From NCBI GenBank assembly GCA_018920345.1, contig JAHLMN010000011.1, forward strand, positions 1-51,644: 51,644 nt of DNA, in the 5' to 3' direction. A program made the translations under genes and the position numbers. A model generated the notes under the pieces. The model was given only the letters and a program-made list of their open reading frames with translations. It searched no databases and was not told the origin of the DNA. Each line of letters starts with the position of its first letter. Within the stretch, counting starts at the first letter, position 1. This DNA is from Candidatus Aenigmatarchaeota archaeon. GTDB taxonomy: Archaea > Aenigmatarchaeota > Aenigmatarchaeia > CG10238-14. Below are positions 22,777 through 51,301 of the stretch, in pieces.

Positions 22777-23961
22777 ATGTTTGATTTGCTCTTTTTTTGT
22801 TTTTTTGGTATTTTTTTGGGATTTTTAGCTGGTTTACTGCCAGGTATACATCCAAATCAAATATATTTTTTTATTTTATTATCAGGCCTAGGACTAGAGC
22901 CAAACATTTTTGTTGTTTTTTTAGCATCAATTTCTGTTTCAAATATTGTTTTTAGCTATATACCGTCCTTTTTTCTTTCTCTACCTGACAGCAGTACAAT
23001 TGTTAATGTCTTACCTGCGCATAAAATGGTTTTAAAAGGTGATGGTTTAAAGGCATTACTAATTTCTTTAACATCAATAATTATAATTTGTCTTATTGTT
23101 GTTTTATGCCTCCCATTATTTATTTTTTTAGTACCTTTATTGCAAAAAATAACAAAACCCTTTATTCACTTGTTACTTTTGCTTTTAGTGGCTATTATGA
23201 TAATTATTGAAAAAGATAATTCAAAACGTTTTTTTGCTTTGTTTTTGTTTTTAATTTCAGGTATTTTTGGAATAGTTACATTAAACTCTAAAATAATAAG
23301 CTCTGAAAAAGTATTGTTTCCTGCACTCACAGGACTTTTTGGAATTCCGAGTTTATTGTTTATTAATAAAGGTAAATTACCTAAACAAAATTCACATGAA
23401 ATGTATGTGAAGTTAAATGTGAAGGTAATATTATCAGGTTTATTAGCTGGCGCCTTGGCTGGTATATTACCAGGAGCCGGAGAAAGTCAAGCTGGAACTG
23501 TTGTATCTTTGTTGTCAAGATTAAAAGACGAAGAAATTGTAGGTTCTTTGGCTGGAATTAATATTGCAAACTTGCTTTTTTCTGTTATAGCTTTAGTAGA
23601 AACAGGAAATATAAGGAGTGGTTTAGCTGAGTCTTTATCAACAATCGAAATAAAACATTATTTTCTTTTGTTTTTAGGGGCTTTTATTTTCTCTTTAGGA
23701 TTTTCTTGCATATTATGTATATTTTTTTCAAAGTGGTTTTTGAAATTAATTGAAAAAATAGATTATGAAAAAATAGGTAGAATTATTATTTATTCTACTA
23801 TAACTCTAACTCTTGTTTTTACTGGTATATGGGGATTATTAGTTTTAATAATAGCAACATCTCTTGGTATACTTCCTTTACTTTTGGGTGTAAAAAGGAC
23901 TAACAATATGGGTTTTTTAATGCTTCCTGTGATCTTACACTACTCAAATTTAGTAATGTGA
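22777..23961 (+). CDS. TctA-like (tripartite tricarboxylate transporter) permease
   Basis: GLLPGIHPN, IPSFFLSLPD, VLPAHKMVLKGDG, PALTGLFG, GILPG. Confidence 0.85.
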   Translation: MFDLLFFCFFGIFLGFLAGLLPGIHPNQIYFFILLSGLGLEPNIFVVFLASISVSNIVFSYIPSFFLSLPDSSTIVNVLPAHKMVLKGDGLKALLISLTSIIIICLIVVLCLPLFIFLVPLLQKITKPFIHLLLLLLVAIMIIIEKDNSKRFFALFLFLISGIFGIVTLNSKIISSEKVLFPALTGLFGIPSLLFINKGKLPKQNSHEMYVKLNVKVILSGLLAGALAGILPGAGESQAGTVVSLLSRLKDEEIVGSLAGINIANLLFSVIALVETGNIRSGLAESLSTIEIKHYFLLFLGAFIFSLGFSCILCIFFSKWFLKLIEKIDYEKIGRIIIYSTITLTLVFTGIWGLLVLIIATSLGILPLLLGVKRTNNMGFLMLPVILHYSNLVM

Positions 23962-24075
23962 ATTTCCAAATGAAAAAGAAGTATTTCATGTGAAGATAAA
24001 ATATTAAAGAATATGTGAAATTCATAAGAATTCACATAAAAGAAGTTTATCTGCACGTGAAATAGACCCCACCCC
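23958..24075. promoter_or_regulatory. Cluster of TTCAC/GTGAA and ORB-like motifs upstream of the LAGLIDADG gene
   Basis: GTGAA 23958; ATTTCCAAATGAAA 23962-23975; TTCATGTGAA 23985-23994; inverted pair TATGTGAA 24012 / TTCACATA 24031; TGCACGTGAAATAGACCCCACCCC 24052-24075. Confidence 0.6.
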
Positions 24076-24118: not shown

Positions 24119-24715
24119 ATGGAAATTGATTTCGGTTATGTTTACGGGATTTTGATTGCAAAAGGTGTATATCATAGCAAAGATCTGATAACCATAGAAA
24201 TGTCTGACAAAAATTTATTAGAAATAGCAAAAAGCAAATTAAAATTACTTGGTAATGTAAGAATTTATAATAAAATTAGAAAATCAAATAAATTATACAA
24301 TACACAAGTCATTTTCTTGAAAATTAAAAATAACATTGAATTGAAACTTGGCAGGCATGAATGGGATGTTCCTTCACGTGCATTCATTTCTAAAGAATTT
24401 AGGATTGGTCTATTGAGAGCCTTGTTTGACTTTTCAGGAACAATAAGGGCTAGACTAAGAAAAAGTGGACAAAAAGAAAGAAGTATTAGGTTAAGCTCTG
24501 TAAACGAAAATATAAAAAAAATAAAAGAATTGCTAAAGATTGAAGGAATAAATTCAATGATTTATTCAAACAAAAAATCGTTTATTTTAGAAATAAATGG
24601 CAAGCATAATTTGCAATTATATTTGGAAAAAATTGGTTTTGAAAATAGCGCTAAAAAAGATTTGTTAGAAAAAATCATAAATCCAGTTTCATTTGAACAC
24701 ATTTTATCTTCATGA
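24119..24715 (+). CDS. Free-standing double-motif LAGLIDADG-fold protein (WhiA/intein-endonuclease-like), catalytic acids degenerate
   Basis: Motif 1 GYVYGILIAKG, motif 2 GLLRALFDFSG, C-terminal LYLEKIGF..KK. Confidence 0.75.
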   Translation: MEIDFGYVYGILIAKGVYHSKDLITIEMSDKNLLEIAKSKLKLLGNVRIYNKIRKSNKLYNTQVIFLKIKNNIELKLGRHEWDVPSRAFISKEFRIGLLRALFDFSGTIRARLRKSGQKERSIRLSSVNENIKKIKELLKIEGINSMIYSNKKSFILEINGKHNLQLYLEKIGFENSAKKDLLEKIINPVSFEHILSS

Positions 24716-24753
24716 CAATATTATATCTAGTAAATGAAGTCCACGTGAAGTAA

Positions 24754-27515: not shown

Positions 27516-28463
27516 CTACAATTCTTTCACTTCTCTTGTGTGAAGATTTACTTCATACTCTTTATCAAAAACAGATATTATTGTTGTTCCTTTGTAATTT
27601 TTAGCTAGAGATGGTTCAATATCTGTTATTATAAAATCAGGTAAATTATCAAGTATAAAATCTTCTGGATTTGAAATTGCATAGTCATTTGTTGTTAAAA
27701 GTAAAAATCTTCTTTTAAGTAATTTTAATAAAGATTCAGAGTAAATTTTTATTCTCATAAAATCAAAAAATTTTTTTGGTAAAATTAGAAAGGTTATATT
27801 TCCATAACTAATATAAGTGGGGTTAGCTCTTCTAGGTGATAGAGGATTTTCTTGATTTAAATTGACCTTTAGAATTATTTCTTCATTTGTTTTTTTTATT
27901 TCTCTATTTAGTGGTATATCAGGATGTAAAATCTTTCTGGTAATAAACTTTTCTCTTTGTCTTTCACAATAAACACCAACCACATCATCTCTTTCAAAAT
28001 CTTCTAATTTTTGTTTCATTATTCCTTCAAAAAAGATTTCTATTTCTCCCGTGGGGTCTTCTAAAACAATAGAAGCATTACCTTTCTCCTTTATTAATCC
28101 TATGGTGGAAAATTCTCTAGTGTTTTCTGTTATCTTATTTATTGATATTCCACTAAAACCAACAGAAGTAAAAATGTCTTTTATTTTTTCATATTTTTTT
28201 AGATAAAAATTTACATAGTCATCTATTCTCAAAGCTTTTTTTTCCAAAACAATTTCTTTTACTACCTGAAAGTTTAATTCTTTTTTTTGATTTTTAGCTA
28301 TTATTTCATTAACTATATCTCTTGTCAAAAAAAATGGCCTTATTTTGAGTTTTTTAATTTCTGAAATAAAAAAATCTGGGTCTTTTCTTATAATAGCTAA
28401 TGCATCATTTGTTAATTGTATTCCCATGTCTAGAAAAGTTTTTATTATTTCTTGGTCATTCAT
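27516..28463 (-). CDS. Inactivated, internally deleted PolD small-subunit (DP1)/B-subunit homolog
   Basis: DP1-like N-terminus (EIIKTFLDMGIQLT.DA), DYVNFY..KYEKI, OB fold (LEDPTG, DDVVGV, HPDIP), then LLKRRF, PDFII, YKGT. Metal-binding His/Asp motifs are absent. TGATG coupling to cdc6. Confidence 0.75.
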   Translation of the reverse strand: MNDQEIIKTFLDMGIQLTNDALAIIRKDPDFFISEIKKLKIRPFFLTRDIVNEIIAKNQKKELNFQVVKEIVLEKKALRIDDYVNFYLKKYEKIKDIFTSVGFSGISINKITENTREFSTIGLIKEKGNASIVLEDPTGEIEIFFEGIMKQKLEDFERDDVVGVYCERQREKFITRKILHPDIPLNREIKKTNEEIILKVNLNQENPLSPRRANPTYISYGNITFLILPKKFFDFMRIKIYSESLLKLLKRRFLLLTTNDYAISNPEDFILDNLPDFIITDIEPSLAKNYKGTTIISVFDKEYEVNLHTREVKEL

Positions 28464-29677
28464 CAAACCACAAGGCTTTCATTCAATATTGCTTTAATTT
28501 TTTGTTTTATTGGCTCTGAAAGATTAAACATTATAACTCTTGTCCTGCCATATCTACCTAAAGAAGTAACTTTGGCGTTTATTATTCCTGCCATATCTAG
28601 CTCAGAAATTAAATCAGAAATTCTTCTTTGCGTTAAAGGATACAAACCTATTTCTTTACATTTTTTCTGATAAATGTCATATACATCCCCTGTTTGTATG
28701 TCATCTCTTTTTGTTTCAGCTAACTCTAATATTGCCCATAAGACGACTTTGGTTTGTTTTGGTAAAACTTTTGTTGACTCTATTATTCTATCATAATCAA
28801 TCTTTTCTTGTGCCATGTCAACGTGTTTTTCTGTTACTTTGTTATCACCCATTCTTTCTGCTATTTCTCCTGCTACTCTTAACAAATCTAAGGCTCTTCT
28901 TGCATCACCATGCTCTTGAGCAGCCAATGCTGCACATTTTGGTATAACTTCTTCTGAAAGTGCTTCTTCAACAAAAGCTAATTGAGCTCTATGTTTCAGT
29001 ATATCGTGTAGTTGAGTGGCATTGTAAGGAATAAACAAAACTTCCTCTTCTCTTAAAGAACTCTTTACTCTTGGATCTAATATTTCTATGAAATGTAAAT
29101 CATTAGTTATTCCTATTATAGATAATTTTGCTTGTTTTAGATCCTGATTTATTCTTGTCAAGTTATAAAGAAACTCGTCGCCCATTTTTTCTACTAGTGC
29201 GTCTATCTCATCTAAAATCAATATTATTATTCTTTTTTCAGAATCCAATGCATTAAAAAAAGTTTGATAAATATAATCTGTTGGCAAGCCAGTTGTTGGT
29301 AAATTATAACCAAGCATCCTGGTTAACTCTGTCACAAGTCTATATTCTGTATCAGAAATTTTTTTCATTTTACAATTAATATAGAGTACTTTAACAGGAA
29401 AGTTTCCTTGGCTAGAAATTTTTTCAAGTTCTTCTGCTATATGTTTTGAAACAAGTGTTTTTCCTGTACCTGTCAAACCATAAATAAAAATATTTGATGG
29501 TCTTGCACCTTTCAAAGAAGGAGCTAATATCGAAGCAATTGTATTAATCTCTTTATTTCTATGATAAATTGTTTCTGGAGTAAATTCTGATGTTAAAACA
29601 TCTCTATTTTTAAATATCTGTGGTGGTTTTGTAATAAATTCTTGAAATATATTTCTTATTGTTTTTTGTGTTTCCAT
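28463..29677 (-). CDS. cdc6: Orc1/Cdc6 replication initiator
   Basis: GLTGTGKT, ILDEID, LDPRVKSSL, GDARRALDLLR, C-terminal wHTH with GRYGRT. Confidence 0.97.
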   Translation of the reverse strand: METQKTIRNIFQEFITKPPQIFKNRDVLTSEFTPETIYHRNKEINTIASILAPSLKGARPSNIFIYGLTGTGKTLVSKHIAEELEKISSQGNFPVKVLYINCKMKKISDTEYRLVTELTRMLGYNLPTTGLPTDYIYQTFFNALDSEKRIIILILDEIDALVEKMGDEFLYNLTRINQDLKQAKLSIIGITNDLHFIEILDPRVKSSLREEEVLFIPYNATQLHDILKHRAQLAFVEEALSEEVIPKCAALAAQEHGDARRALDLLRVAGEIAERMGDNKVTEKHVDMAQEKIDYDRIIESTKVLPKQTKVVLWAILELAETKRDDIQTGDVYDIYQKKCKEIGLYPLTQRRISDLISELDMAGIINAKVTSLGRYGRTRVIMFNLSEPIKQKIKAILNESLVV

Positions 29678-29689
29678 ACAAAATTAATA

Positions 29690-29944
29690 AACTCCTATAG
29701 AAATAAACCTTTTTCTATTGGAAAAAATATAATAACCCAGACCCCTCTATTTCAAGTGGAAATTTTTATATAAACAAAAATAAAAAATATAACAGTATTA
29801 TATTTATAATTATAAATTATTTTAATCTTTTGTTAGATTTTACTACAAAAAAACTATTAAAATAAAAAGTTTAGGTTAATTAAACTAAATTTTTGTTTTT
29901 GTTTTAAAAACAATAAACATTAATTCCAAAAGAAATAAAGGGGT
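29690..29944. other. Chromosomal replication origin (oriC): inverted ORBs flanking an AT-rich DUE
   Basis: ORB ATTTCCACTTGAAATAGAGGGGT on - strand (29741-29763) and AATTCCAAAAGAAATAAAGGGGT on + strand (29922-29944), 18/23 identical. A 158-bp AT-rich spacer lies between them, mini-ORB-like sites sit at about 29691-29726, and the whole lies directly upstream of cdc6. Confidence 0.9.
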
Positions 29945-29948
29945 GACA

Positions 29949-44219: not shown

Positions 44220-44543
44220 AGGTATTACCTCTATTTTTTCTTTATATCTTTGAGGCTTTCCTATAACTTTGATATTCATACCTGTTTTTAACCCAGTTGT
44301 ATTAATATTGTCAAAAATAACTACATCTATAATTCCAGAGTCATCTTTAACTTTGATAAATGTTGCAGAGTCACTTCTTTTAATACTAATTATTGTTGCA
44401 TTGAAAGCAACGAAATTTTCATTCAAATTGATTTCAGAAATTTTTACATTTTTTGGCTTAGCATTAATATCAGCAATATATAATATTAAAATTCCTATGA
44501 TAGAAGTAATAATGCATAAAATAATGAATTGTTTTTCATTCAT
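44202..44543 (-). CDS. Membrane-anchored OB-fold protein
   Basis: N-terminal TM; FIKVKDDSGIIDVVIF, GMNIKVIG, YKEKIEVI. Confidence 0.75.
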   Translation of the reverse strand: MNEKQFIILCIITSIIGILILYIADINAKPKNVKISEINLNENFVAFNATIISIKRSDSATFIKVKDDSGIIDVVIFDNINTTGLKTGMNIKVIGKPQRYKEKIEVIPLKIIS

Positions 44544-45070
44544 TCAAGATCTACTTCAAATATTGTAGTATAAATTGGTCCATGAGGGGTTAAATCACTT
44601 CTAACTAAAGATATTTTTTTAGCCATAAATTCACCAAAATTAACATCTTTGTTTTTTCTCAAGAAATCTAAAACTTCATCCTTATTTTTTATAGACTTTA
44701 CACGACACAAAGTCATTTTTGAGTTTTCATAATAATCTCCACCTATCATGCCTCCTACAGTTTTGATTAATAATGATAATTTTCCTTTATCTTTTACTTC
44801 TATGCCAACCACTCTTATATAATTTTCTGATGGTATGATTTTTAACCCAGAAAGAGTTATAGGAAAAGAGCCAAACCCCTTGATGTTAACTAAAGAATTC
44901 TTTATAGAACTTGTATCTTCTACTTCTCCAAGAAAAGTTATAGTTAAATGCAAATTTTCTTTTTCAACAAACTTTGCATCCATTGGGAGTTTTGACATTT
45001 TTTCTTGAAATTTTATTATATCTCTTTTTAGCTCTTCTGGTATCCATATGCAAACAAAAAGTCTAACCAT
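44540..45070 (-). CDS. thpR: 2H phosphoesterase, RNA 2',3'-cyclic phosphodiesterase (ThpR/LigT)
   Basis: RLFV, ENLHLTITFLGE, SDLTPHGPIY; second HxT motif reads KMT. Confidence 0.88.
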   Translation of the reverse strand: MVRLFVCIWIPEELKRDIIKFQEKMSKLPMDAKFVEKENLHLTITFLGEVEDTSSIKNSLVNIKGFGSFPITLSGLKIIPSENYIRVVGIEVKDKGKLSLLIKTVGGMIGGDYYENSKMTLCRVKSIKNKDEVLDFLRKNKDVNFGEFMAKKISLVRSDLTPHGPIYTTIFEVDLE

Positions 45071-45110
45071 ATAGAATTTTTGTACATTCAACTTAATAAT
45101 ACATATATCT

Positions 45111-45205
45111 AAAACTTCACGCGAGACTTCACAAAAACTTCACGCAAGTTTTAAATTAATAAACATACTTAAATTAACTGTTTGTGAAGCGGGGTGTGAA
45201 GTTTT
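45111..45205. promoter_or_regulatory. Phased ACTTCAC repeat array with inverted copies, upstream of the AAA+-wHTH gene
   Basis: ACTTCAC at 45114, 45126, 45137; GTGAAG at 45184, 45196; AAAACTTCAC/GTGAAGTTTT form a perfect 10-bp inverted repeat. Confidence 0.75.
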
Positions 45206-45206
45206 A

Positions 45207-46271
45207 ATGGAATCCAAATACGAATATTATCAAAAGTTTGGCTGGTCAAGAAATCCTTTCACTTTAACTATTTCTCCTGATCTGATGGTAGGCTATTCAC
45301 ATCAGACTGAACAACTCCTAGCACATGTGTTTAACCAACATAAAGCAGCCATGGTTATAGGGCCTACAGGTGCAGGAAAAACAACAATATTAACTTGGCT
45401 TAATGCTCAATTAAAAGCTTACAATGGTTTTAGACCATATTATATACCAAAACCACCTACAACTAAAGAAGAGCTGATAAAATTGTTCAAGCATAATCTA
45501 GGCTTTAGTATAATAGATAAAATATTGTATAAAGAAATAGATATGAACAATCTAACTAAATATGTAAACAAGAAAACAAAAGAAAAGACAATATTCTTAA
45601 TTGATGAAGCACATGAATGTTCTCAAGAAGTATTAGAGTGGTTAAGAACAATAAATGATTTAGCCCCTAATTTAGTAATAGTATTTGCTGGTTTGAATAC
45701 ATTTGAAAAAAAATTGGAGGCAGAACTCCCAACACTTCTTATGCGCGTGAATACACGTGTATATCTAGAATCCTTGTCAGAAATGGAAACAGAGTCTCTA
45801 ATACAAAAAAGAATAGATAGGGCAGGAGGAGAAGGTATAAAACCATTTACACACGATGCTATAAGAAAAATTCATGAAATAACAGGTGGTTTTCCGAGAG
45901 AAATAATAAAAGTTTGTGATCAACTTATAAAAGAAGCTGCTTTGAGAAATTTAACATCTATAAATTCCTCTCTAGTAGAAGAAGTATTCAGCAGCAAAGT
46001 CGTGACACAGGCAGTTCAAGTGAAGTTCACGTTAACTCCCAAACAAAAAGAGATATTGGAATTGCTGAACAAGACACCAGATTTATCTCCAACAGAAATA
46101 GTGGCTAATATAGATATAAAGGAGTACAAAACAAAAGATCATGCTATAAGATCAGTAAACAATATACTAAAGAGATTAATGGATGAAGATTTAATAAAAA
46201 GAGCAAAAGTCGGTAACAAGTTTGTATATTCTTTATCAGGTAAAGCAAAAACCATATTGGCTGAAGCGTGA
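45207..46271 (+). CDS. ExeA/GspA-like AAA+ ATPase fused to a C-terminal winged HTH
   Basis: YYQKFGWSRNPF, GPTGAGKTT, LIDEAH, VFAG, TGGFPREI..VCD; C-terminal LTPKQKEILELL...VNNILKRL...LIKR...YSL. Confidence 0.85.
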   Translation: MESKYEYYQKFGWSRNPFTLTISPDLMVGYSHQTEQLLAHVFNQHKAAMVIGPTGAGKTTILTWLNAQLKAYNGFRPYYIPKPPTTKEELIKLFKHNLGFSIIDKILYKEIDMNNLTKYVNKKTKEKTIFLIDEAHECSQEVLEWLRTINDLAPNLVIVFAGLNTFEKKLEAELPTLLMRVNTRVYLESLSEMETESLIQKRIDRAGGEGIKPFTHDAIRKIHEITGGFPREIIKVCDQLIKEAALRNLTSINSSLVEEVFSSKVVTQAVQVKFTLTPKQKEILELLNKTPDLSPTEIVANIDIKEYKTKDHAIRSVNNILKRLMDEDLIKRAKVGNKFVYSLSGKAKTILAEA

Positions 46272-46336
46272 TATATTTAAAATTGTAGTAAAGAATATAT
46301 TCTTATTAAGATAATAGATTAAAAGGTGATAAAATC

Positions 46337-46600
46337 GTGGCTGATACAAGAGTAAAGGCAAAATCTGTTATTGGAAAAACAATAATTAGTGAGGAAACAG
46401 GGAGAAGATTTGGGGTTGTAAGTAATGTTGATTTTGTTACAGAAAGCGGAGAGTTGCTTAACATAGTAGTTGCAGGTGCTACAAAGGCTTTGAAAGATTT
46501 GAATTTAAAAGAAGATGATAAAGGAAGACTATTAATACCTTTTAGTGCAGTAAAATCAATAGGAGATTTTGTTGTAGTAAGTGAAAACGAATTACTGTAA
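46337..46600 (+). CDS. PRC-barrel protein (CdpB-like)
   Basis: IGKTII.E.GRRFG.V, SGEL..IVV, IPFSAVKSIGDFVVV; GTG start after SD AGGTGA. Confidence 0.88.
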   Translation: MADTRVKAKSVIGKTIISEETGRRFGVVSNVDFVTESGELLNIVVAGATKALKDLNLKEDDKGRLLIPFSAVKSIGDFVVVSENELL

Positions 46601-47260
46601 ATTTTGTTTTCCCCAAAGTATTTTTTTCCCATATTTAATTCTATATACTAGTCCTTTTTTCTCCATCTCTATTAGTATTTGATTTGCTCTACTTCTTGAT
46701 ATACCTAATAGATCTCCTATTTCTTCACTACTAAACTTGTTTCCATTTAATTGCTTTAAAATTTCCTTTTCTCTCATGCTTTGCTCTAGACTATCAGCGG
46801 ATTTTCTTATTTTTTCCAAAATAGCCAACTGTTGATTGCTGTTGATTGCTGTTGACAACTGTTGATTGCTGTTGATTGCTGTTGACAACTGTTGATTGCT
46901 GATAAAAATCTTAAGTTCATCAATACTTTTTCTTATAGAATCGAGTTCTTTAAAGAATTCATCATTAGATTCTAACTCATCTTGAAACCTTTTTTCGGTT
47001 AAAACTTTATCAGGAACCCTTAAATCAAATTTTATGTCTAAACCAGTTATTTTTTCCTTTATTAAGGCCAAATCTGCTGCCATTTGTTCTATTTGTCCCA
47101 TCCTTCTTGCATATTGTAAATCTCTAATGTTATAACCACCATCAACTGTTGATTGCTGTTGATTGCTGTTGATTGCTGTTGACAACTGTTGATTGCTGTT
47201 GACAACTGTTGATGCTCTTTTAATCCCCAGAACTTTTTTCATAAATTCTTTAAAACTCAT
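46592..47260 (-). CDS. Coiled-coil protein with INSNQQLSTA repeats and C-terminal winged HTH
   Basis: SSEEIGDLLGISRSRANQILIEMEKKGLV.R...GK; two low-complexity repeat blocks. Confidence 0.8.
   Translation of the reverse strand: MSFKEFMKKVLGIKRASTVVNSNQQLSTAINSNQQQSTVDGGYNIRDLQYARRMGQIEQMAADLALIKEKITGLDIKFDLRVPDKVLTEKRFQDELESNDEFFKELDSIRKSIDELKIFISNQQLSTAINSNQQLSTAINSNQQLAILEKIRKSADSLEQSMREKEILKQLNGNKFSSEEIGDLLGISRSRANQILIEMEKKGLVYRIKYGKKILWGKQNLQ
46826..46901. repeat. 10-bp tandem array (GTTGATTGCT/GTTGACAACT), about 7.5 units, intragenic
   Basis: Perfect decamers at 46831-46900 with a 30-bp higher-order period. Confidence 0.95.
47143..47213. repeat. Second 10-bp tandem array of the same units, about 7 units, intragenic
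   Basis: CTGTTGA recurs every 10 bp from 47146 to 47212. Confidence 0.95.
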
Positions 47261-47294
47261 AAAAATAATATAATTTTGACATATTTATTTTTGT

Positions 47295-47333
47295 CTTCAC
47301 GACTTCACGTGAAACTTCACGTCCATTTCACGT
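47295..47333. promoter_or_regulatory. TTCACG repeat array with perfect TTCACGTGAA palindrome upstream of the wHTH gene
   Basis: TTCACG at 47296, 47304, 47316, 47327; the last two overlap the kae1 3' end. Confidence 0.75.
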
Positions 47334-48288
47334 CAACTTCATCAACTCTCCAATCTTTTAATATGAAAGATTCTTCCAATTTAGTTCTTACACCTGATTT
47401 GTACATTATCAAACCAGTCCAACCTATCATCACTCCATTATCTCCAGCATATTTCATAGGCACAGAGAAAACTTTAGCACCTCTATCTTTACACATGACT
47501 TCTAACATATTTTTTAACCTTTGATTTGCAGCAACACCACCAGTTACAAGAACTTCTTCTTTTTCTGTATGTGCTAAAGCTCTTTCTGTAGCTTCTATCA
47601 ACATTGAAAAGCAAGTTTCTTGAAAAGAATAAGCGATATCCTCTTTTTTAAACCCTTTTTTGTAAAGTTTTTGACATTCAGTAACTATACCTGAAAAAGA
47701 AAAATCCATGCCTTTAACTACATATGGTAGATCAATCCAATTTCCGTTTTCTGCTAATTTCTCTATTTTTGGACCGCCTGGCATTTCTAATCCTAGAGAT
47801 CTTGCTAAAACATCAAAGGCATTTCCTATAGGAATATCTAATGTCTCTCCAAAAATTCTATATCTATTTCCTGTTAAAGCAATTATTTGAGTATTGCCTC
47901 CAGAGCAATAAAGTATAACAGGATCTTTTGCACCTGTCATTAATTTTGCAATTTCTATATGAGCAATCGGATGATTAACCCCTACTAGAGGTAAATTATG
48001 CTTTAAAGATAGATATCTTGCTATAGTGGCGCCAAGAGATAAACAATTAGGTAATCCTGGACCTTGAGAAAAGGCTATTATATCGATTTTTGATGTCTCA
48101 AAAGCTTTCTTAATTAAACTAGCAGCGTTTTCTGCATGATATTCAAATACCTTTCTAGGAAGCATACCCTGACCTAATGGAGGTTGATAAAAAGACTTTT
48201 CATCAAATAAAACATTTCCTTTCTCATCAATAAGGCCTACACCAAAGGTATGAGCTGTTGATTCTATTCCTAAACAAACTCTAGTCAA
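47317..48288 (-). CDS. kae1: tRNA t6A threonylcarbamoyltransferase Kae1 (KEOPS)
   Basis: LGIESTAHT, FSQGPG, VNHPIAHIE, SGGNTQ, GETLDI, GGVAAN, DNGVMI; TTG start (48294 is an alternative). Confidence 0.96.
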   Translation of the reverse strand: MTRVCLGIESTAHTFGVGLIDEKGNVLFDEKSFYQPPLGQGMLPRKVFEYHAENAASLIKKAFETSKIDIIAFSQGPGLPNCLSLGATIARYLSLKHNLPLVGVNHPIAHIEIAKLMTGAKDPVILYCSGGNTQIIALTGNRYRIFGETLDIPIGNAFDVLARSLGLEMPGGPKIEKLAENGNWIDLPYVVKGMDFSFSGIVTECQKLYKKGFKKEDIAYSFQETCFSMLIEATERALAHTEKEEVLVTGGVAANQRLKNMLEVMCKDRGAKVFSVPMKYAGDNGVMIGWTGLIMYKSGVRTKLEESFILKDWRVDEVDVKWT

Positions 48289-48499
48289 ACTCAAACACCT
48301 TCATTATTTTTGCATTGCCCCCTCCTTGATTAATTAAATTTCTAAGATTTTTCAATATTTCCAGATTTATTTCATTATCTTCTAATTGCCAAACAGAATC
48401 CATAACTTTGGTCGCATTTAATTTTTGTAACTCCCTCCAAACTCTTACCAGTAAAGTATTCTTTGTTTTAGGGATATCATACATTATTATTAATGCCAT
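48281..48499 (-). CDS. Small Cas2-like ferredoxin-fold protein (PaaX-middle/ChrB-N-like)
   Basis: IIMYDIP....LVRVWRELQKLNA.KVMDSVW; ATG at 48499; overlaps the kae1 start. Confidence 0.7.
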   Translation of the reverse strand: MALIIMYDIPKTKNTLLVRVWRELQKLNATKVMDSVWQLEDNEINLEILKNLRNLINQGGGNAKIMKVFEFD

Positions 48500-48581
48500 G
48501 TAATACGTATTACAAAAACGAAAATAAAAGCTTTTTTGACAAAAATAAGAAAAATTTGAGCTTTTTGTAATACGTCTGACA
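48499..48581. promoter_or_regulatory. Pair of 16-bp palindromic operators
   Basis: TGTAATACGTATTACA (48499-48514, perfect palindrome) and TGTAATACGTCTGACA (48566-48581, 14/16 identical). Confidence 0.75.
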
Positions 48582-48860
48582 TCACTCACTAACTTTCTTC
48601 ATATATTTCAAGTATGTTAAAACACCTTTTAAATCGACATTTTTATTCTTTAATTTGACTAATTTTAGCTTTAAACCATATTCGTTTAAATTTTGAGTCA
48701 AAATAAACTGATTTAAGTATTTATCTAAAATTTCAGAGACAGTTTGATGATGAATACCAGTTCTTCTGCTTATTTCCCTTAAATGAAGCCAATCTTGAGC
48801 TTCTTTAAGCACAAAAAGAATTTTTCCGATTTTTTTTACTGTATCTTGACGCATACCCAT
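48582..48860 (-). CDS. Small winged-HTH DNA-binding protein
   Basis: LHLREISRRTGIHHQTVSEIL. Confidence 0.8.
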   Translation of the reverse strand: MGMRQDTVKKIGKILFVLKEAQDWLHLREISRRTGIHHQTVSEILDKYLNQFILTQNLNEYGLKLKLVKLKNKNVDLKGVLTYLKYMKKVSE

Positions 48861-48943
48861 AATCTCTCACGAACTCTCACTTGCCAGCTGGCGCCTTTTT
48901 ATCTCACTTTTCTAGACTATTATAGCATTTCTACTTTAAGATA

Positions 48944-49591
48944 TTATGCCAAACTTCTATCACAAACCCTTCTAAACCTACACTTTAAGCATTTTTGAGG
49001 ATTTGTTGTTGATTCTGGCAATCTAACATCTCTGATGAGATCATGTATTTCAATTATATCCTTTACAACCGTTTCTAAGAGATTTTTATCAAATTTTTGA
49101 CACCAAAAAACTTCTTTAGTATCTCTATTTCTTAAAACACTGAAAATATCTCTATCGGGCTTAAATTCTTCAGAAAAACTTAAGCTATATGCAGCCACTT
49201 GCTTGATAAGACCTTGATAAGCTACACTACCTGGCTTGTCATCTATTATTAAAATATTATCAGGAAATATTTGTACCTCATCTATTTTTCCATATATACC
49301 ATATTTGCTGGAAATAGTTTCCAGCTCTCTTATAAAAAAAGACTCGCCTGTTTCTTTAGATCTAATCAAGGCTTCTTCTATTGTCATTTCTTCTTCAGCT
49401 TGCTCTAGAAACTCTCTTTCTAACTCTTCATGAATCTGCTTACCAATTATCATTTCTGCTGTTTTCTCAACTTTTATTTTCTTTATCTTTTCCAAATATA
49501 ACTGGTATTCACAAAAACCTTTACTATGCAGCCAAGATATAGGAAAATGATTAATACCATTTATAACTATCAAACCATCTATTCCATTCAT
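48944..49591 (-). CDS. cas4: Cas4-like RecB-family nuclease (solo, Fe-S)
   Basis: FCEYQ, GKQIH, GKIDEV, IDDKP, QVAAY, KCLKCRFRRVC (1+3 Cys). Confidence 0.85.
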   Translation of the reverse strand: MNGIDGLIVINGINHFPISWLHSKGFCEYQLYLEKIKKIKVEKTAEMIIGKQIHEELEREFLEQAEEEMTIEEALIRSKETGESFFIRELETISSKYGIYGKIDEVQIFPDNILIIDDKPGSVAYQGLIKQVAAYSLSFSEEFKPDRDIFSVLRNRDTKEVFWCQKFDKNLLETVVKDIIEIHDLIRDVRLPESTTNPQKCLKCRFRRVCDRSLA

Positions 49592-49695
49592 AAAACCACA
49601 AATTTATAGCTTCTCTAAACAAATATAGATACAAATAAAAATCAAAAAGATTTAAATAAATGAAATAAAACAATAAAGTGTTTTGGTGATAAGGT

Positions 49696-50307
49696 TTGAA
49701 GGTAAAGATTCTTGAAAAAGACGATTTTAAGATGAAACTTCAAATAGAAGGAATAAATGCGGCAATGGCAGGGGAATTAAGAAGGATAATGATATCAGAA
49801 ATTCCTACGATGGCAATAGAGTGGGTAGACTTTCATGCAAATGATTCAATATTGTGGGACGAAATAATAGCACATAGACTTGGCTTGATACCTCTCACTT
49901 TTGATCCAAACTTTTTCAATTTTAAAGATGAATGCCAATGTGAAGGCAAAGGATGTACAAAATGTCAAGTAGCCTTTGCATTAAAAAGAACAGGGCCTGG
50001 AATGGTTTATTCTGGAGATTTGAAAACAACAGATGATAGAGTAAAGCCAGTATTCGATAAAATACCTATTGTAGAGCTAATGGAAGGTCAAGAGCTAGAA
50101 CTAGAAGCTTTTGCTGAATTAGGTATTGGCCGAAAGCATGCTAAATGGCAGGGAGCAGTAGTAGGTTACAAGGTAGATGGAGACAAATATATCTTTAATA
50201 TAGAGAGTGTTTGTGGTTTGAAACCGGAACAAGTTTTCACTCAGGCATTAAAAGTTTTGAATGAAAAACTAGAGGACTTTACTAAAGATGTAGAAAGAAT
50301 AAAGTAA
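49696..50307 (+). CDS. rpoD: DNA-directed RNA polymerase subunit D (Rpo3)
   Basis: LRRIMISEIPTMAI, DEIIAHRLGLIPL, CQCEGKGCTKC, GRKHAKW; TTG start after SD GGTGA; no ferredoxin insert. Confidence 0.95.
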   Translation: MKVKILEKDDFKMKLQIEGINAAMAGELRRIMISEIPTMAIEWVDFHANDSILWDEIIAHRLGLIPLTFDPNFFNFKDECQCEGKGCTKCQVAFALKRTGPGMVYSGDLKTTDDRVKPVFDKIPIVELMEGQELELEAFAELGIGRKHAKWQGAVVGYKVDGDKYIFNIESVCGLKPEQVFTQALKVLNEKLEDFTKDVERIK

Positions 50308-50340
50308 TTTAATGCTAATTCTATAATTATTTTGAAATAT

Positions 50341-50436
50341 GCAGGGGTAGCCAAGCGGCCAAAGGCGCAGGACTTAAGTTGCTTGGAGAAATCCTGTCTC
50401 TTAGTGAGTTCGAGAGTTCGAATCTCTCCCCCTGCA
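50341..50436 (+). tRNA. tRNA-Leu(TAA) with a 12-nt intron at position 37/38 (50379-50390)
   Basis: Acceptor stem GCAGGGG/CCCCTGC, anticodon stem CAGGA/TCCTG, TAA at 50375-50377, long variable arm, GTTCGAAT T-loop; CCA not encoded. Confidence 0.93.
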
Positions 50437-50536
50437 TTTTATTTAAACAATTTTGAGTTTTTCTATAATAAAAGATTTTAAATACCGATCCGGAATCCAA
50501 AAAGTATATTTTTTTAATTTTTTAAAATTTCATAAT

Positions 50537-51301
50537 ATGAGAATTTTATTAAATTTAGAAAGTTTGAAGGATTGTGAATATGATTTAAAATATTTTCATA
50601 AATTGCAGGGATTTATTTACAATTTAATCAAAGAAAACGAATATAAAATATTACACAATAAAATAGGTTATAAATTTTTTTGTTTTTCAAATATCTATCC
50701 ATTTAAAAACATAAATATTGGTGATAAAAGAAAATTGATGATTTCCTCTCCTGATAAATTTTTAATCAAATATTTAAAAGAAAGACTTGAGAAATTAACA
50801 GAAGAAAATATACCAATAAATATAGGTGAAATGTCTTTTAAGCTTTCTAGTATTTCTATATTAAATACTAAGATTAAAAACAATTCTAGATTAATTTCTA
50901 CTACACCTATTATCATAAGAATTCCAGAAAAAAATTATGACAAATACGGAATACCGACTAACTATAGAAAAAAAAGATATGTTTATTGGAGACCGCAATA
51001 TTCCTTTGAAGCATTCATAAAGCAGCTTGAAAATAATCTTTTTAAGAAGTACAATGAATTTTATAAAACAAGAATTGAAGAATTTCCTATATTTGAGGAG
51101 ATGAAATATAAGAGACTTGTAGTTTCTCATATATTAATAAATGGAAAAGAGTATAAACTTGTTGGAAGCATATGGGAATTTATATTTACTTACTTAAATA
51201 ATAGACAGAGAAAAATATTAGAATTTGGAATGGATTGTGGTTTTGGCGAGAGAAATAGTTTTGGATTTGGTTTTGTAAATAAGAAAAATGAAGTGAATTA
51301 A
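50537..51301 (+). CDS. cas6: CRISPR-associated endoribonuclease Cas6
   Basis: LQGFIY, LHNK.GYKFFCFS, ISSP, TPIII, NL.KKY, G-rich loop GFGERNSFGFG; ATG at 50537. Confidence 0.93.
   Translation: MRILLNLESLKDCEYDLKYFHKLQGFIYNLIKENEYKILHNKIGYKFFCFSNIYPFKNINIGDKRKLMISSPDKFLIKYLKERLEKLTEENIPINIGEMSFKLSSISILNTKIKNNSRLISTTPIIIRIPEKNYDKYGIPTNYRKKRYVYWRPQYSFEAFIKQLENNLFKKYNEFYKTRIEEFPIFEEMKYKRLVVSHILINGKEYKLVGSIWEFIFTYLNNRQRKILEFGMDCGFGERNSFGFGFVNKKNEVN

Follow-up and report, generated by a model that had tools for sequence, protein, structure and literature searches.

In iteron-type Rep systems and in ParR/parC, direct repeats lie one helical turn apart and a single array serves both assembly and autoregulation; in plasmid parC, iterons of 11 bp flank the par promoter. 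Here, we describe an array of short TTCAC/GTGAA words in front of an AAA+ ATPase gene in a 51,644-nucleotide stretch of DNA from a Candidatus Aenigmatarchaeota archaeon (contig JAHLMN010000011.1 of assembly GCA_018920345.1). This stretch, hereafter the window, is contig C8 of a 95.5% complete genome (G000) of 815,730 bp in 27 contigs with about 29% GC. As judged from sequence and conservation, the array most probably holds the binding sites of a sequence-specific DNA-binding protein, the product of the gene at 45207-46271 itself. By analogy, the two may work like an Orc1/ORB (origin recognition box) or a Rep/iteron pair, in which a protein reads short repeats at its own gene.

The resemblance to the plasmid systems lies in the inverted copies over the promoter of the putative binder's operon. 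Unlike the Rep and ParR systems, however, the locus is chromosomal, vertically inherited, and single-copy; the putative binder is an AAA+ protein with a winged helix-turn-helix (wHTH) domain instead of Rep or a ribbon-helix-helix ParR, and its operon contains no actin-like or ParA-like motor gene. With Orc1/Cdc6 and its ORBs, the locus shares a predicted AAA+ base, lid, and winged helix as well as short repeated words beside the protein's own gene. It differs from that pair in that the ATPase has no sequence membership in the family, in the word itself, which is TTCAC(GTGAA) and not the ORB of this genome, in a strict 11-bp period with up to 38 copies, and in a constant PRC-barrel operon partner. 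The ATPase further resembles the ExeA/GspA-TniB-MuB-TnsC group of AAA_22 proteins, with a PF13401 score above the cutoff and a partial TIGR03015 match. Unlike that group, it carries an added winged helix, scores below the TIGR03015 cutoff, and is encoded among housekeeping genes, with no transposon or secretion context.

A further likeness is to bacterial parS and ParB, namely the 10-bp core TTCACGTGAA and an origin-proximal location. In a hand alignment, window positions 47303-47316 agree with positions 3-16 of the 16-bp parS consensus at 12 of 14 bases, while the full consensus is not matched; among the matches listed, literature hits to the string TTCACGTGAA mostly concern ParB, parS, or Noc. 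In contrast to parS, the unit here is a half-site in phased direct repeats and not an isolated 16-bp palindrome, and the fuller archaeal palindrome GTTCACGTGAAC, found at distant loci, is one base shorter per arm. ParB as the binder was rejected, since ParB_N (PF02195) was not found in any of the six genomes searched (G000, G190, G181, G219, G197, and G125), in a search whose positive controls succeeded in 11 of 14 reference genomes. Searches by motif string and by PRC-barrel neighborhood, none by protein name, found no publication on the ATPase or the array.

A phased array at the promoter of the ATPase gene

The array comprises five half-sites around the core promoter of the ATPase gene (Table 1). 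A first-pass annotation of this DNA had the layout exactly right, spacings included: three direct ACTTCAC copies, a 40-bp gap (45144-45183), and two inverted copies. Its description of the gap as AT-rich does not hold, as the composition is ordinary: at 17.5% GC the gap stands at the 29th percentile, 29% of intergenic 40-mers being equally or more AT-rich. Upstream of the ATG of the next gene at 45207, the sites are arranged about a dyad center near 45158, and this symmetry pairs site 1 with site 5 and site 2 with site 4. The half-site TTCAC(G) is half of the palindrome TTCACGTGAA, which occurs in full at 47304-47313 within a second cluster, cluster B. This cluster lies upstream of the TATA-like box of a gene for a 222-residue wHTH protein and runs over the final codons of the Kae1/TsaD gene, whose stop is at 47317. 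A third cluster, cluster 3, is found directly upstream of the TATA-like box of a LAGLIDADG gene (24119-24715), and a single further site lies beyond the stop codon of the same gene. Of the motif claimed earlier for these four loci, the core is present at all four; cluster 3, however, contains only one full CTTCAC, so that this locus matches the shorter core.

The window contains 33 copies of CTTCAC and 12 of ACTTCAC; 100 dinucleotide shuffles gave 13.1 ± 3.1 and 3.9 ± 1.9, and none of them reached the observed counts. The whole genome contains only three clusters of at least five TTCAC/GTGAA copies within 110 bp, which are the array, cluster B, and cluster 3, all of them intergenic; among 469 intergenic regions, the short ones richest in copies are these same three loci. 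Twenty simulated third-order Markov genomes yielded no cluster of at least five copies and a mean of 0.5 clusters of at least four. All seven close pairs of strong sites (8-13 bp apart) in the genome fall in the window, with about 1.1 expected genome-wide, and 15 of the 54 genomic copies of TTCACG are on the window's contig, which makes up 6.3% of the genome. The first-pass annotation had staked its motif on clustering beyond a Markov background and on presence at orthologous loci; the former is borne out by these counts, the latter by the motif's occurrence at 20/20 loci of the family and at 19/20 loci of distant families.

Within the family, the ATPase is encoded in 21 of 22 other genomes (55-88% identity), and at all 20 loci that we fetched the LigT-like gene is divergent from the ATPase gene, the PRC-barrel gene lies downstream, and the motif is present upstream of the ATPase gene. 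An unbiased ranking of k-mers in these 20 LigT-ATPase intergenic regions places GTGAA/TTCAC first (86 copies, 8.4 expected, 20/20 loci), and CGTGAA reaches 47 copies where 3.0 are expected, again at 20/20 loci. The pairing of gene and array is also conserved in a sister family. In an alignment of five genomes of the genus, the spacers have diverged, but each of the five TTCAC/GTGAA cores and both TATA-like blocks are unchanged, which reads as a classical phylogenetic footprint. Position is equally regular: across 22 promoters, TTCAC in gene direction lies at -40 to -95 and GTGAA occupies -6 to -32 on the downstream side of the TATA box, so that the sites flank the TATA-like block and fall between this block and the ATG in 22/22.

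Several genera of the family have a perfect TTCACG-N17-CGTGAA enclosing the TATA box, with the inverted arms about 17 bp apart. This pattern has 11 sites in 41 genomes, all in this family, six of them within 60 bp of the ATPase start and three more within 5 kb; as the reversed control totals 9, it is the location and not the number that carries the signal. Phased triple arrays number 13, in 8 of the 41 genomes, against 1 for the reversed control, and 13/13 are at or near ATPase or LAGLIDADG loci. The triple arrays at the 3' end of the Sua5 gene (G009, G012, and G019) encode VK-x-IREG, and their status as sites is therefore uncertain. In L011, L013, L014, and L020, it is three phased GTGAA copies in the last codons of the Sua5/YrdC gene that encode this peptide, with codons that are rare in this genome (GTG 9% of Val, CGT 2% of Arg). 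Four of the five genomes of the genus have cluster B and all five have the GCACGTGAAAT core of cluster 3, with CCACGTGAAAT at a locus from a further genus. The spot between LAGLIDADG and PolB has two GTGAA-core copies 11 bp apart in each of the four other genus genomes, seven of the eight being GTGAAG. Family arrays are small, with 2-9 sites around one promoter.

Beyond the family, 205 of 301 genomes sampled from the phylum Aenigmatarchaeota encode the ATPase (36-49% identity), and the gene is missing mainly from some families of the window's own order (f2, 1/58; f5, 0/17). A gene that is class-wide and missing only from some families of this order is best seen as ancestral and lost there, and we rejected the idea that ATPase and operator are an insertion between the LigT and PRC-barrel genes. 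In a sample of 20 loci from as many other families (37-46% identity), the top word is once more GTGAA, with 105 copies against 21.5 expected at 19/20 loci, followed by CACGTGAA (38 against 4.3) and by the 10-mer TTCACGTGAA (16 against 1.9, 10/20 loci). At these distant loci, the 750 bp upstream of the gene contain 4-38 sites, and the arrays reach 8-38 sites over 200-700 bp, often where 300-600 bp are free of long open frames; the array of the G190-type locus measures roughly 480 bp, and another locus consists of three tandem repeats of a unit of about 125 bp. When the 40 loci are taken together, 122 of 296 same-strand neighbors are exactly 11 bp apart, with lesser peaks near 21 and 31. Random placement in the same spans gave 9.3 such spacings on average and never more than 19 in 300 runs. 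The term "helically phased", coined earlier for the window's five sites, is therefore true class-wide, and the window's array is a reduced version of a larger class-wide element.

Some of the larger loci contain further repeats. A second box, ACTCTCACA(A/T), lies upstream of the ATPase gene in L042, L046, L047, L050, L054, L057, L059, and L060 as one to three copies in gene direction, with one additional inverted copy in L059; it is absent from the window's locus. About six CTCACATTT-like copies are found at 3640-3900 of L070, a paralogous locus in genome G275.

The ATPase and its link to the array

By sequence, the best family of the ATPase is PF13401 AAA_22 (51.7 bits, cutoff 27), and the partial match to ExeA-like TIGR03015 covers residues 7-262 with 88.3 bits against a cutoff of 324.5; the C-terminal winged helix is of the BlaI/MarR kind. 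An AlphaFold model built on 18 orthologues, with a pLDDT (predicted local distance difference test) of 86.8, has the three-domain plan of Orc1/Cdc6, that is AAA+ base, lid, and C-terminal winged helix, and ORC/Cdc6 chains rank first in a Foldseek search with it (E 1e-12 to 1e-11). The AAA+ part also resembles the DNA-filament formers TnsC and MuB. Three helices of the model (87-98, 102-108, and 113-123) lie between strands 75-80 and 127-132 and are at most a candidate for the initiator-specific motif, a DNA-contacting helical insert after strand beta-2. In sequence searches a kinship with Orc1/Cdc6 is not apparent. Neither Cdc6_lid (PF22703) nor Cdc6_C (PF09079) is among the 22 Pfam matches of the ATPase at E<=0.01, whereas the true Cdc6 of the window scores 4.4e-29 and 3.4e-26 in the same search; BLASTP found no collinear match between the two proteins, and a profile of the ATPase reached 2qby_A in the PDB at E 0.21. 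As the ATPase has the shape of Orc1/Cdc6 without the sequence membership, we do not file it in that family. Its recognition helix, (H/N)A-x-RS-x-NN-(I/L)-L, is invariant in 28/28 aligned orthologues and in the G275 paralogue, and the gene is single-copy in this genome.

The motif follows the ATPase gene in both loss and duplication. In 5/5 genomes of the same order that lack the ATPase gene, the LigT and PRC-barrel genes are directly divergent and 31-84 bp apart, with zero or one motif copy between them. In five near-complete relatives, phased triple arrays number 19 against 0 for the reversed control and occur only at ATPase or paralogue loci: 7/7 in G190, 3/3 in G131, and 1/1 in G174 are at the ATPase locus, G122 has none, and G275 has seven extra hits directly upstream of a 36%-identical ATPase paralogue. 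The whole module is duplicated in G275 (L070, G275:C1:459500-466500), with an array of about 30 sites, the ATPase-wHTH gene, an open reading frame of 179 codons, and a PRC-barrel gene. Small wHTH genes behave differently: they lie within the fetched flank of 14 of 20 family loci and are missing from the other six, their products cannot be aligned between genera and have different recognition helices, and L015 and L019 have no such gene in the fetched flank yet have eight motif copies each. A motif that disappears with the ATPase gene and comes with its duplicated paralogue, and a constant word that matches an invariant helix, tie the array to the ATPase and not to its neighbors.

Proposed function and alternative explanations

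What would the ATPase do at its array? On balance, it is probable that the protein occupies the phased array at its own gene in a cooperative manner and regulates at least its own expression, and that two further promoters are under its control in this genus. The unit site would be the half-palindrome TTCAC(G) and the full site TTCACGTGAA, with one winged helix reading one half-site. As half-sites are one helical turn (11-12 bp) apart, bound AAA+ modules would lie on one face of the DNA, where they may contact each other and give ATP-dependent, cooperative, filament-like binding. In the window, the five sites are placed symmetrically about the TATA-like block and cover the expected start of transcription. 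Because the sites lie on the core promoter, their occupancy would compete with TBP, TFB, and RNA polymerase and the operon of ATPase and PRC-barrel genes would be autoregulated, probably by repression. The divergent LigT/OB-fold genes would likely be affected too, and in this genus the same protein may also control the 222-residue wHTH gene and the LAGLIDADG gene.

Repeated or dyad sites that overlap the core promoter of a gene for a DNA-binding protein are expected of an autoregulatory operator, and this arrangement is found here, the gene product having a wHTH. The role of promoter-binding regulator would have a precedent in Orc1-2 of Saccharolobus islandicus, a non-initiator Orc1/Cdc6 protein that binds a promoter hexanucleotide 23-55 bp before the ATG and regulates transcription (PMC6061795). 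The regulon proposed by the first-pass annotation appears right in kind, but it is tiny and local, comprising three promoters (the ATPase operon with the divergent LigT gene, the 222-residue wHTH gene, and the LAGLIDADG gene) and the conserved LAGLIDADG-PolB site. In the five near-complete relatives the triple-array pattern detected no further sites beyond the ATPase or paralogue locus.

Several observations weigh against an autoregulating ATPase as the full explanation. The compared genomes are relatives, so that counts are not independent, and some sites are off promoters, between the convergent LAGLIDADG and PolB genes and inside coding sequence. Two of the 20 distant loci, L052 and L058, lack a dense noncoding array and show no more than one copy within the proximal 170 bp, and L041 and L044 have at most one proximal copy, with most sites inside the adjacent LigT coding region. 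The ATG-proximal GTGAA lies at -9/-10 in 15 of 22 promoters, where it agrees with the Shine-Dalgarno word used in this genome: no 4-mer is more enriched ahead of start codons than GTGA (121 of 857 genes), GTGAA precedes 44 of 857 predicted starts, and in the window the GTGAAG copy closest to the ATG (-11) also matches GTGA and may double as a Shine-Dalgarno word. We infer the binder from linkage and co-conservation, and the invariant reading head leaves no protein-DNA covariation to compare. Finally, arrays of 20-38 sites over 300-600 bp exceed what an operator needs, and regulation may therefore be a by-product of another function.

Could the whole pattern stem from chance, composition, coding constraint, or Shine-Dalgarno words? 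Besides the enrichment of GTGA(A) before start codons, several intragenic copies encode VK, RE, or FHVK peptides, and under synonymous-codon shuffles the enrichment within coding sequence is not significant in this genome (ATPase gene, 5 copies against 3.3, p 0.2), so that we make no claim for intragenic copies. They are about 1.9-fold enriched across 20 orthologues (80 against 42), and a single copy inside the LAGLIDADG gene stands out under the same shuffles (p 0.024); candidate zones of intragenic sites bracketing the LAGLIDADG gene and the ATPase module were not significant. For the intergenic arrays, however, chance is refuted by the absence of comparable clusters from the Markov genomes, by the reversed-pattern controls (1 against 13 and 0 against 19), and by a position, orientation, and phase that are conserved across the class; overall, an origin of this kind is hardly credible. 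A different reader of the sites, either the small wHTH protein encoded nearby (here of 222 residues) or an unlinked regulator, is unlikely. Such a gene near 14 of 20 family loci and cluster B on the promoter of the 222-residue protein speak for it, but the small wHTH proteins vary or are missing while the DNA word is constant across the class, the motif vanishes and duplicates with the ATPase gene, and the 222-residue protein has no detectable similarity to the ATPase wHTH. Cdc6 is likewise an unlikely binder, because it has its own, different ORB words here, TTCCA-N3-GAAA with a G-run; no TTCAC word occurs in the oriC region.

That oriC, which looks canonical, also bears on whether the array is itself a replication origin, either a second origin or an iteron set, with the Orc1/Cdc6-shaped ATPase as dedicated initiator. 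The predicted fold, repeats directly beside the gene that are partly inverted about a dyad, the large, noncoding, repeat-filled upstream regions of other families, a motif-free stretch of 313 bp and 12% GC between site clusters in L046, and the joint duplication of module and array in G275 would all suit such a role. Yet the oriC lies only 15.5 kb from the array, upstream of the true cdc6 (28463-29677, minus strand), where ORB-like elements surround a 161-bp stretch of 10.6% GC; ORB-like words are also found upstream of cdc6 in the four distant genomes whose upstream regions were read, and a fifth has cdc6 as well. Two origins 4-35 kb apart would be odd in genomes of 0.6-1.4 Mb, and the ATPase is outside the Cdc6 families by sequence. 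Inverted initiator repeats around an AT-rich unwinding region, as expected of an oriC, are not what the array shows: its sites are inverted, but the 40-bp gap between its arms is of ordinary composition and holds the conserved TATA-like blocks, other genera of the family have only about 17 bp between the arms, and the GC content of the largest motif-free gaps is 29-46%, hence not AT-rich, at most distant loci. The "miniature origin" of the first-pass annotation is not supported in the window, and an origin function of the array in general is decidedly unlikely.

A possibility that extends autoregulation by the ATPase instead of excluding it, which the first-pass annotation had also raised and which we regard as tentative and rather unlikely, is that the array centers a centromere-like or chromosome-organizing complex. 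The ATPase would polymerize near oriC, the PRC-barrel protein would link the complex to division or segregation, and autoregulation would be a side effect. This would agree with the strict 11-bp period and the long, often unidirectional arrays of other families, with a core palindrome identical to that of bacterial parS, and with the likeness of the AAA+ part to TnsC and MuB. It would also agree with location, as the ATPase and cdc6 genes are 3.7-58 kb apart in 42 genomes with both on one contig and at most 35 kb apart in 41 of them (hand comparison), including 25 kb and 7.7 kb in the one-contig genomes G131 and G275. Moreover, a PRC-barrel gene comes next after the ATPase gene throughout the class, and PRC-barrel proteins have been implicated in archaeal cell division (10.1101/2023.03.28.534520). 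However, no ParB_N protein was found in the six genomes searched and no ParA-type gene lies in the operon, the array is reduced to a few sites around one promoter in the window's own family, and the paralogous module of G275 is at 462.7 kb, about 197 kb from cdc6. As the LigT and PRC-barrel genes are adjacent even where the ATPase is lacking, the PRC-barrel linkage may be inherited synteny, and since the genomes are related, origin proximity could likewise reflect shared gene order.

Surrounding features and the meaning of the pair

Table 1. Positions of the array, the related sites, the adjacent genes, and the origin in the window.
Feature	Positions	Strand	Remarks
Array, three direct half-sites ACTTCAC	45114, 45126, 45137 (within 45114-45143)	+	Spacing 12 and 11 bp; upstream of TATA-like block
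Array, two TATA/BRE-like (B recognition element) AT blocks	TTTTAAATTAATAAA 45149-45163, TTAAATTAA 45170-45178	+	Invariant in the genus alignment
Array, two inverted half-sites GTGAAG	45184, 45196 (within 45184-45202)	-	12 bp apart; between TATA-like block and ATG
Cluster B	47295-47343	+	CTTCACG at 47295, 47303, 47315; TTTCACG at 47327; CTTCAT at 47338
Cluster 3	23958-24062		Four GTGAA and one TTCAC, ending in GCACGTGAAAT and a C-run
Single site TCCACGTGAAG	24740-24750	-	Between convergent LAGLIDADG stop (24715) and PolB stop (24754)
LigT-like 2H phosphoesterase gene	44540-45070	-	Divergent from ATPase gene; TATA-like box abuts site 1; 20/20 family loci
AAA+ ATPase (AAA_22) gene, 354 residues, C-terminal winged helix	45207-46271	+	Pfam, predicted fold, conservation
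PRC-barrel gene, 87 residues	46337-46600	+	GTG start, GGTGA 10 nt upstream; follows ATPase gene
Gene for coiled-coil/low-complexity protein, 222 residues, C-terminal wHTH	46592-47260	-	Genus-specific; converges on PRC-barrel gene; cluster B on promoter
Canonical-looking oriC (for contrast)	29709-29944 (within 29678-29948)		ORB-like 29709-29724, 29741-29762, inverted 29924-29944 with G-runs

Around the array, the LigT-like protein retains its first H-x-T motif (HLT), while FMAK replaces the second motif FHVK of its relatives, and judging by these residues the enzyme may be inactive in this genus; a small OB-fold gene follows on the minus strand. The PRC-barrel protein is 57-98% identical across relatives. 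Opposite its gene, an open reading frame of 108 codons (46306-46632, minus strand) was dismissed as a low-complexity antisense artefact of the PRC-barrel gene. In the 222-residue wHTH protein, units of NSNQQ(L/Q)STAI are repeated in two blocks, and one genome of the genus encodes a version shortened to about 115 residues. A reading of the array as an RNA hairpin was also rejected: the sequence folds well (z -4.9), which we attribute to the dyad symmetry of the sites, and covariation in five genomes is weak (covariation term -0.48, three pairs with double changes). The region 44400-47600 recurs in DNA contigs from hot-spring metagenomes, while no RNA run is listed as containing it.

Elsewhere in the window, the LAGLIDADG gene is free-standing, single-domain, and convergent with an intein-less PolB gene (904 residues); more distant homologues in relatives sit inside open frames of 1150-2100 residues that are probably inteins, and the gene may be a domesticated or escaped intein endonuclease. 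A gene between cdc6 and PolB (27516-28466, minus strand) encodes a protein of 316 residues whose similarity to the small subunit of PolD is confined to the N-terminal and OB part (NF003118 positions 2-226 of 481) and which, judged by this match, looks like a truncated or divergent DP1-like protein. A second palindrome, ATAACA-N-TGTTAT, separate from TTCAC, is present in the oriC/cdc6 upstream region here (window position 29790, one mismatch) and in four distant genomes. It recurs in AT-rich intergenic DNA of G000 (C9:1177, C12:9979, C17:10329, and C22:1943) and also lies beside the LigT start in two distant loci. Toward the end of the window (48281-51301) there are Cas-like genes for a Cas4-like nuclease (48944-49591), Cas6 (50453-51301), and a weak Cas2-like open reading frame of 102 codons, and a CRISPR-like repeat array is found on another contig (G000 C3:92954-95165). 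The only Rfam match in the window is a tRNA at 50341-50436, which probably contains an intron, as it spans 96 nt against a model of 71 positions.

Hardly any regulator or chromosome-maintenance factor has been studied by experiment in DPANN archaea, whose genomes are tiny. The present analysis describes, in terms of sequence, a protein and a DNA site that are conserved together, a single-copy ATPase with an invariant reading head and a phased word of 5-10 bp, in about two-thirds of sampled Aenigmatarchaeota, and whether the ATPase binds and polymerizes on TTCAC arrays can now be tested with recombinant protein and about 120 bp of DNA. The pair also offers a candidate for the machinery of segregation or replication control that is missing in these archaea. 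Somewhat speculatively, and with a probability that we would keep low, it may represent an undescribed chromosome element, in which an Orc1/Cdc6-shaped, TnsC/MuB-like ATPase polymerizes on arrays near oriC and, together with the PRC-barrel protein, marks or tethers the origin for segregation, division-site, or replication control. If so, it would be a functional analogue of ParB-parS made from unrelated proteins, and the short array of the window would be a reduced form that keeps mainly autoregulation. If the array is only an autoregulated promoter, the ATPase would still be a clean non-initiator Orc-like transcription factor outside the Sulfolobales.

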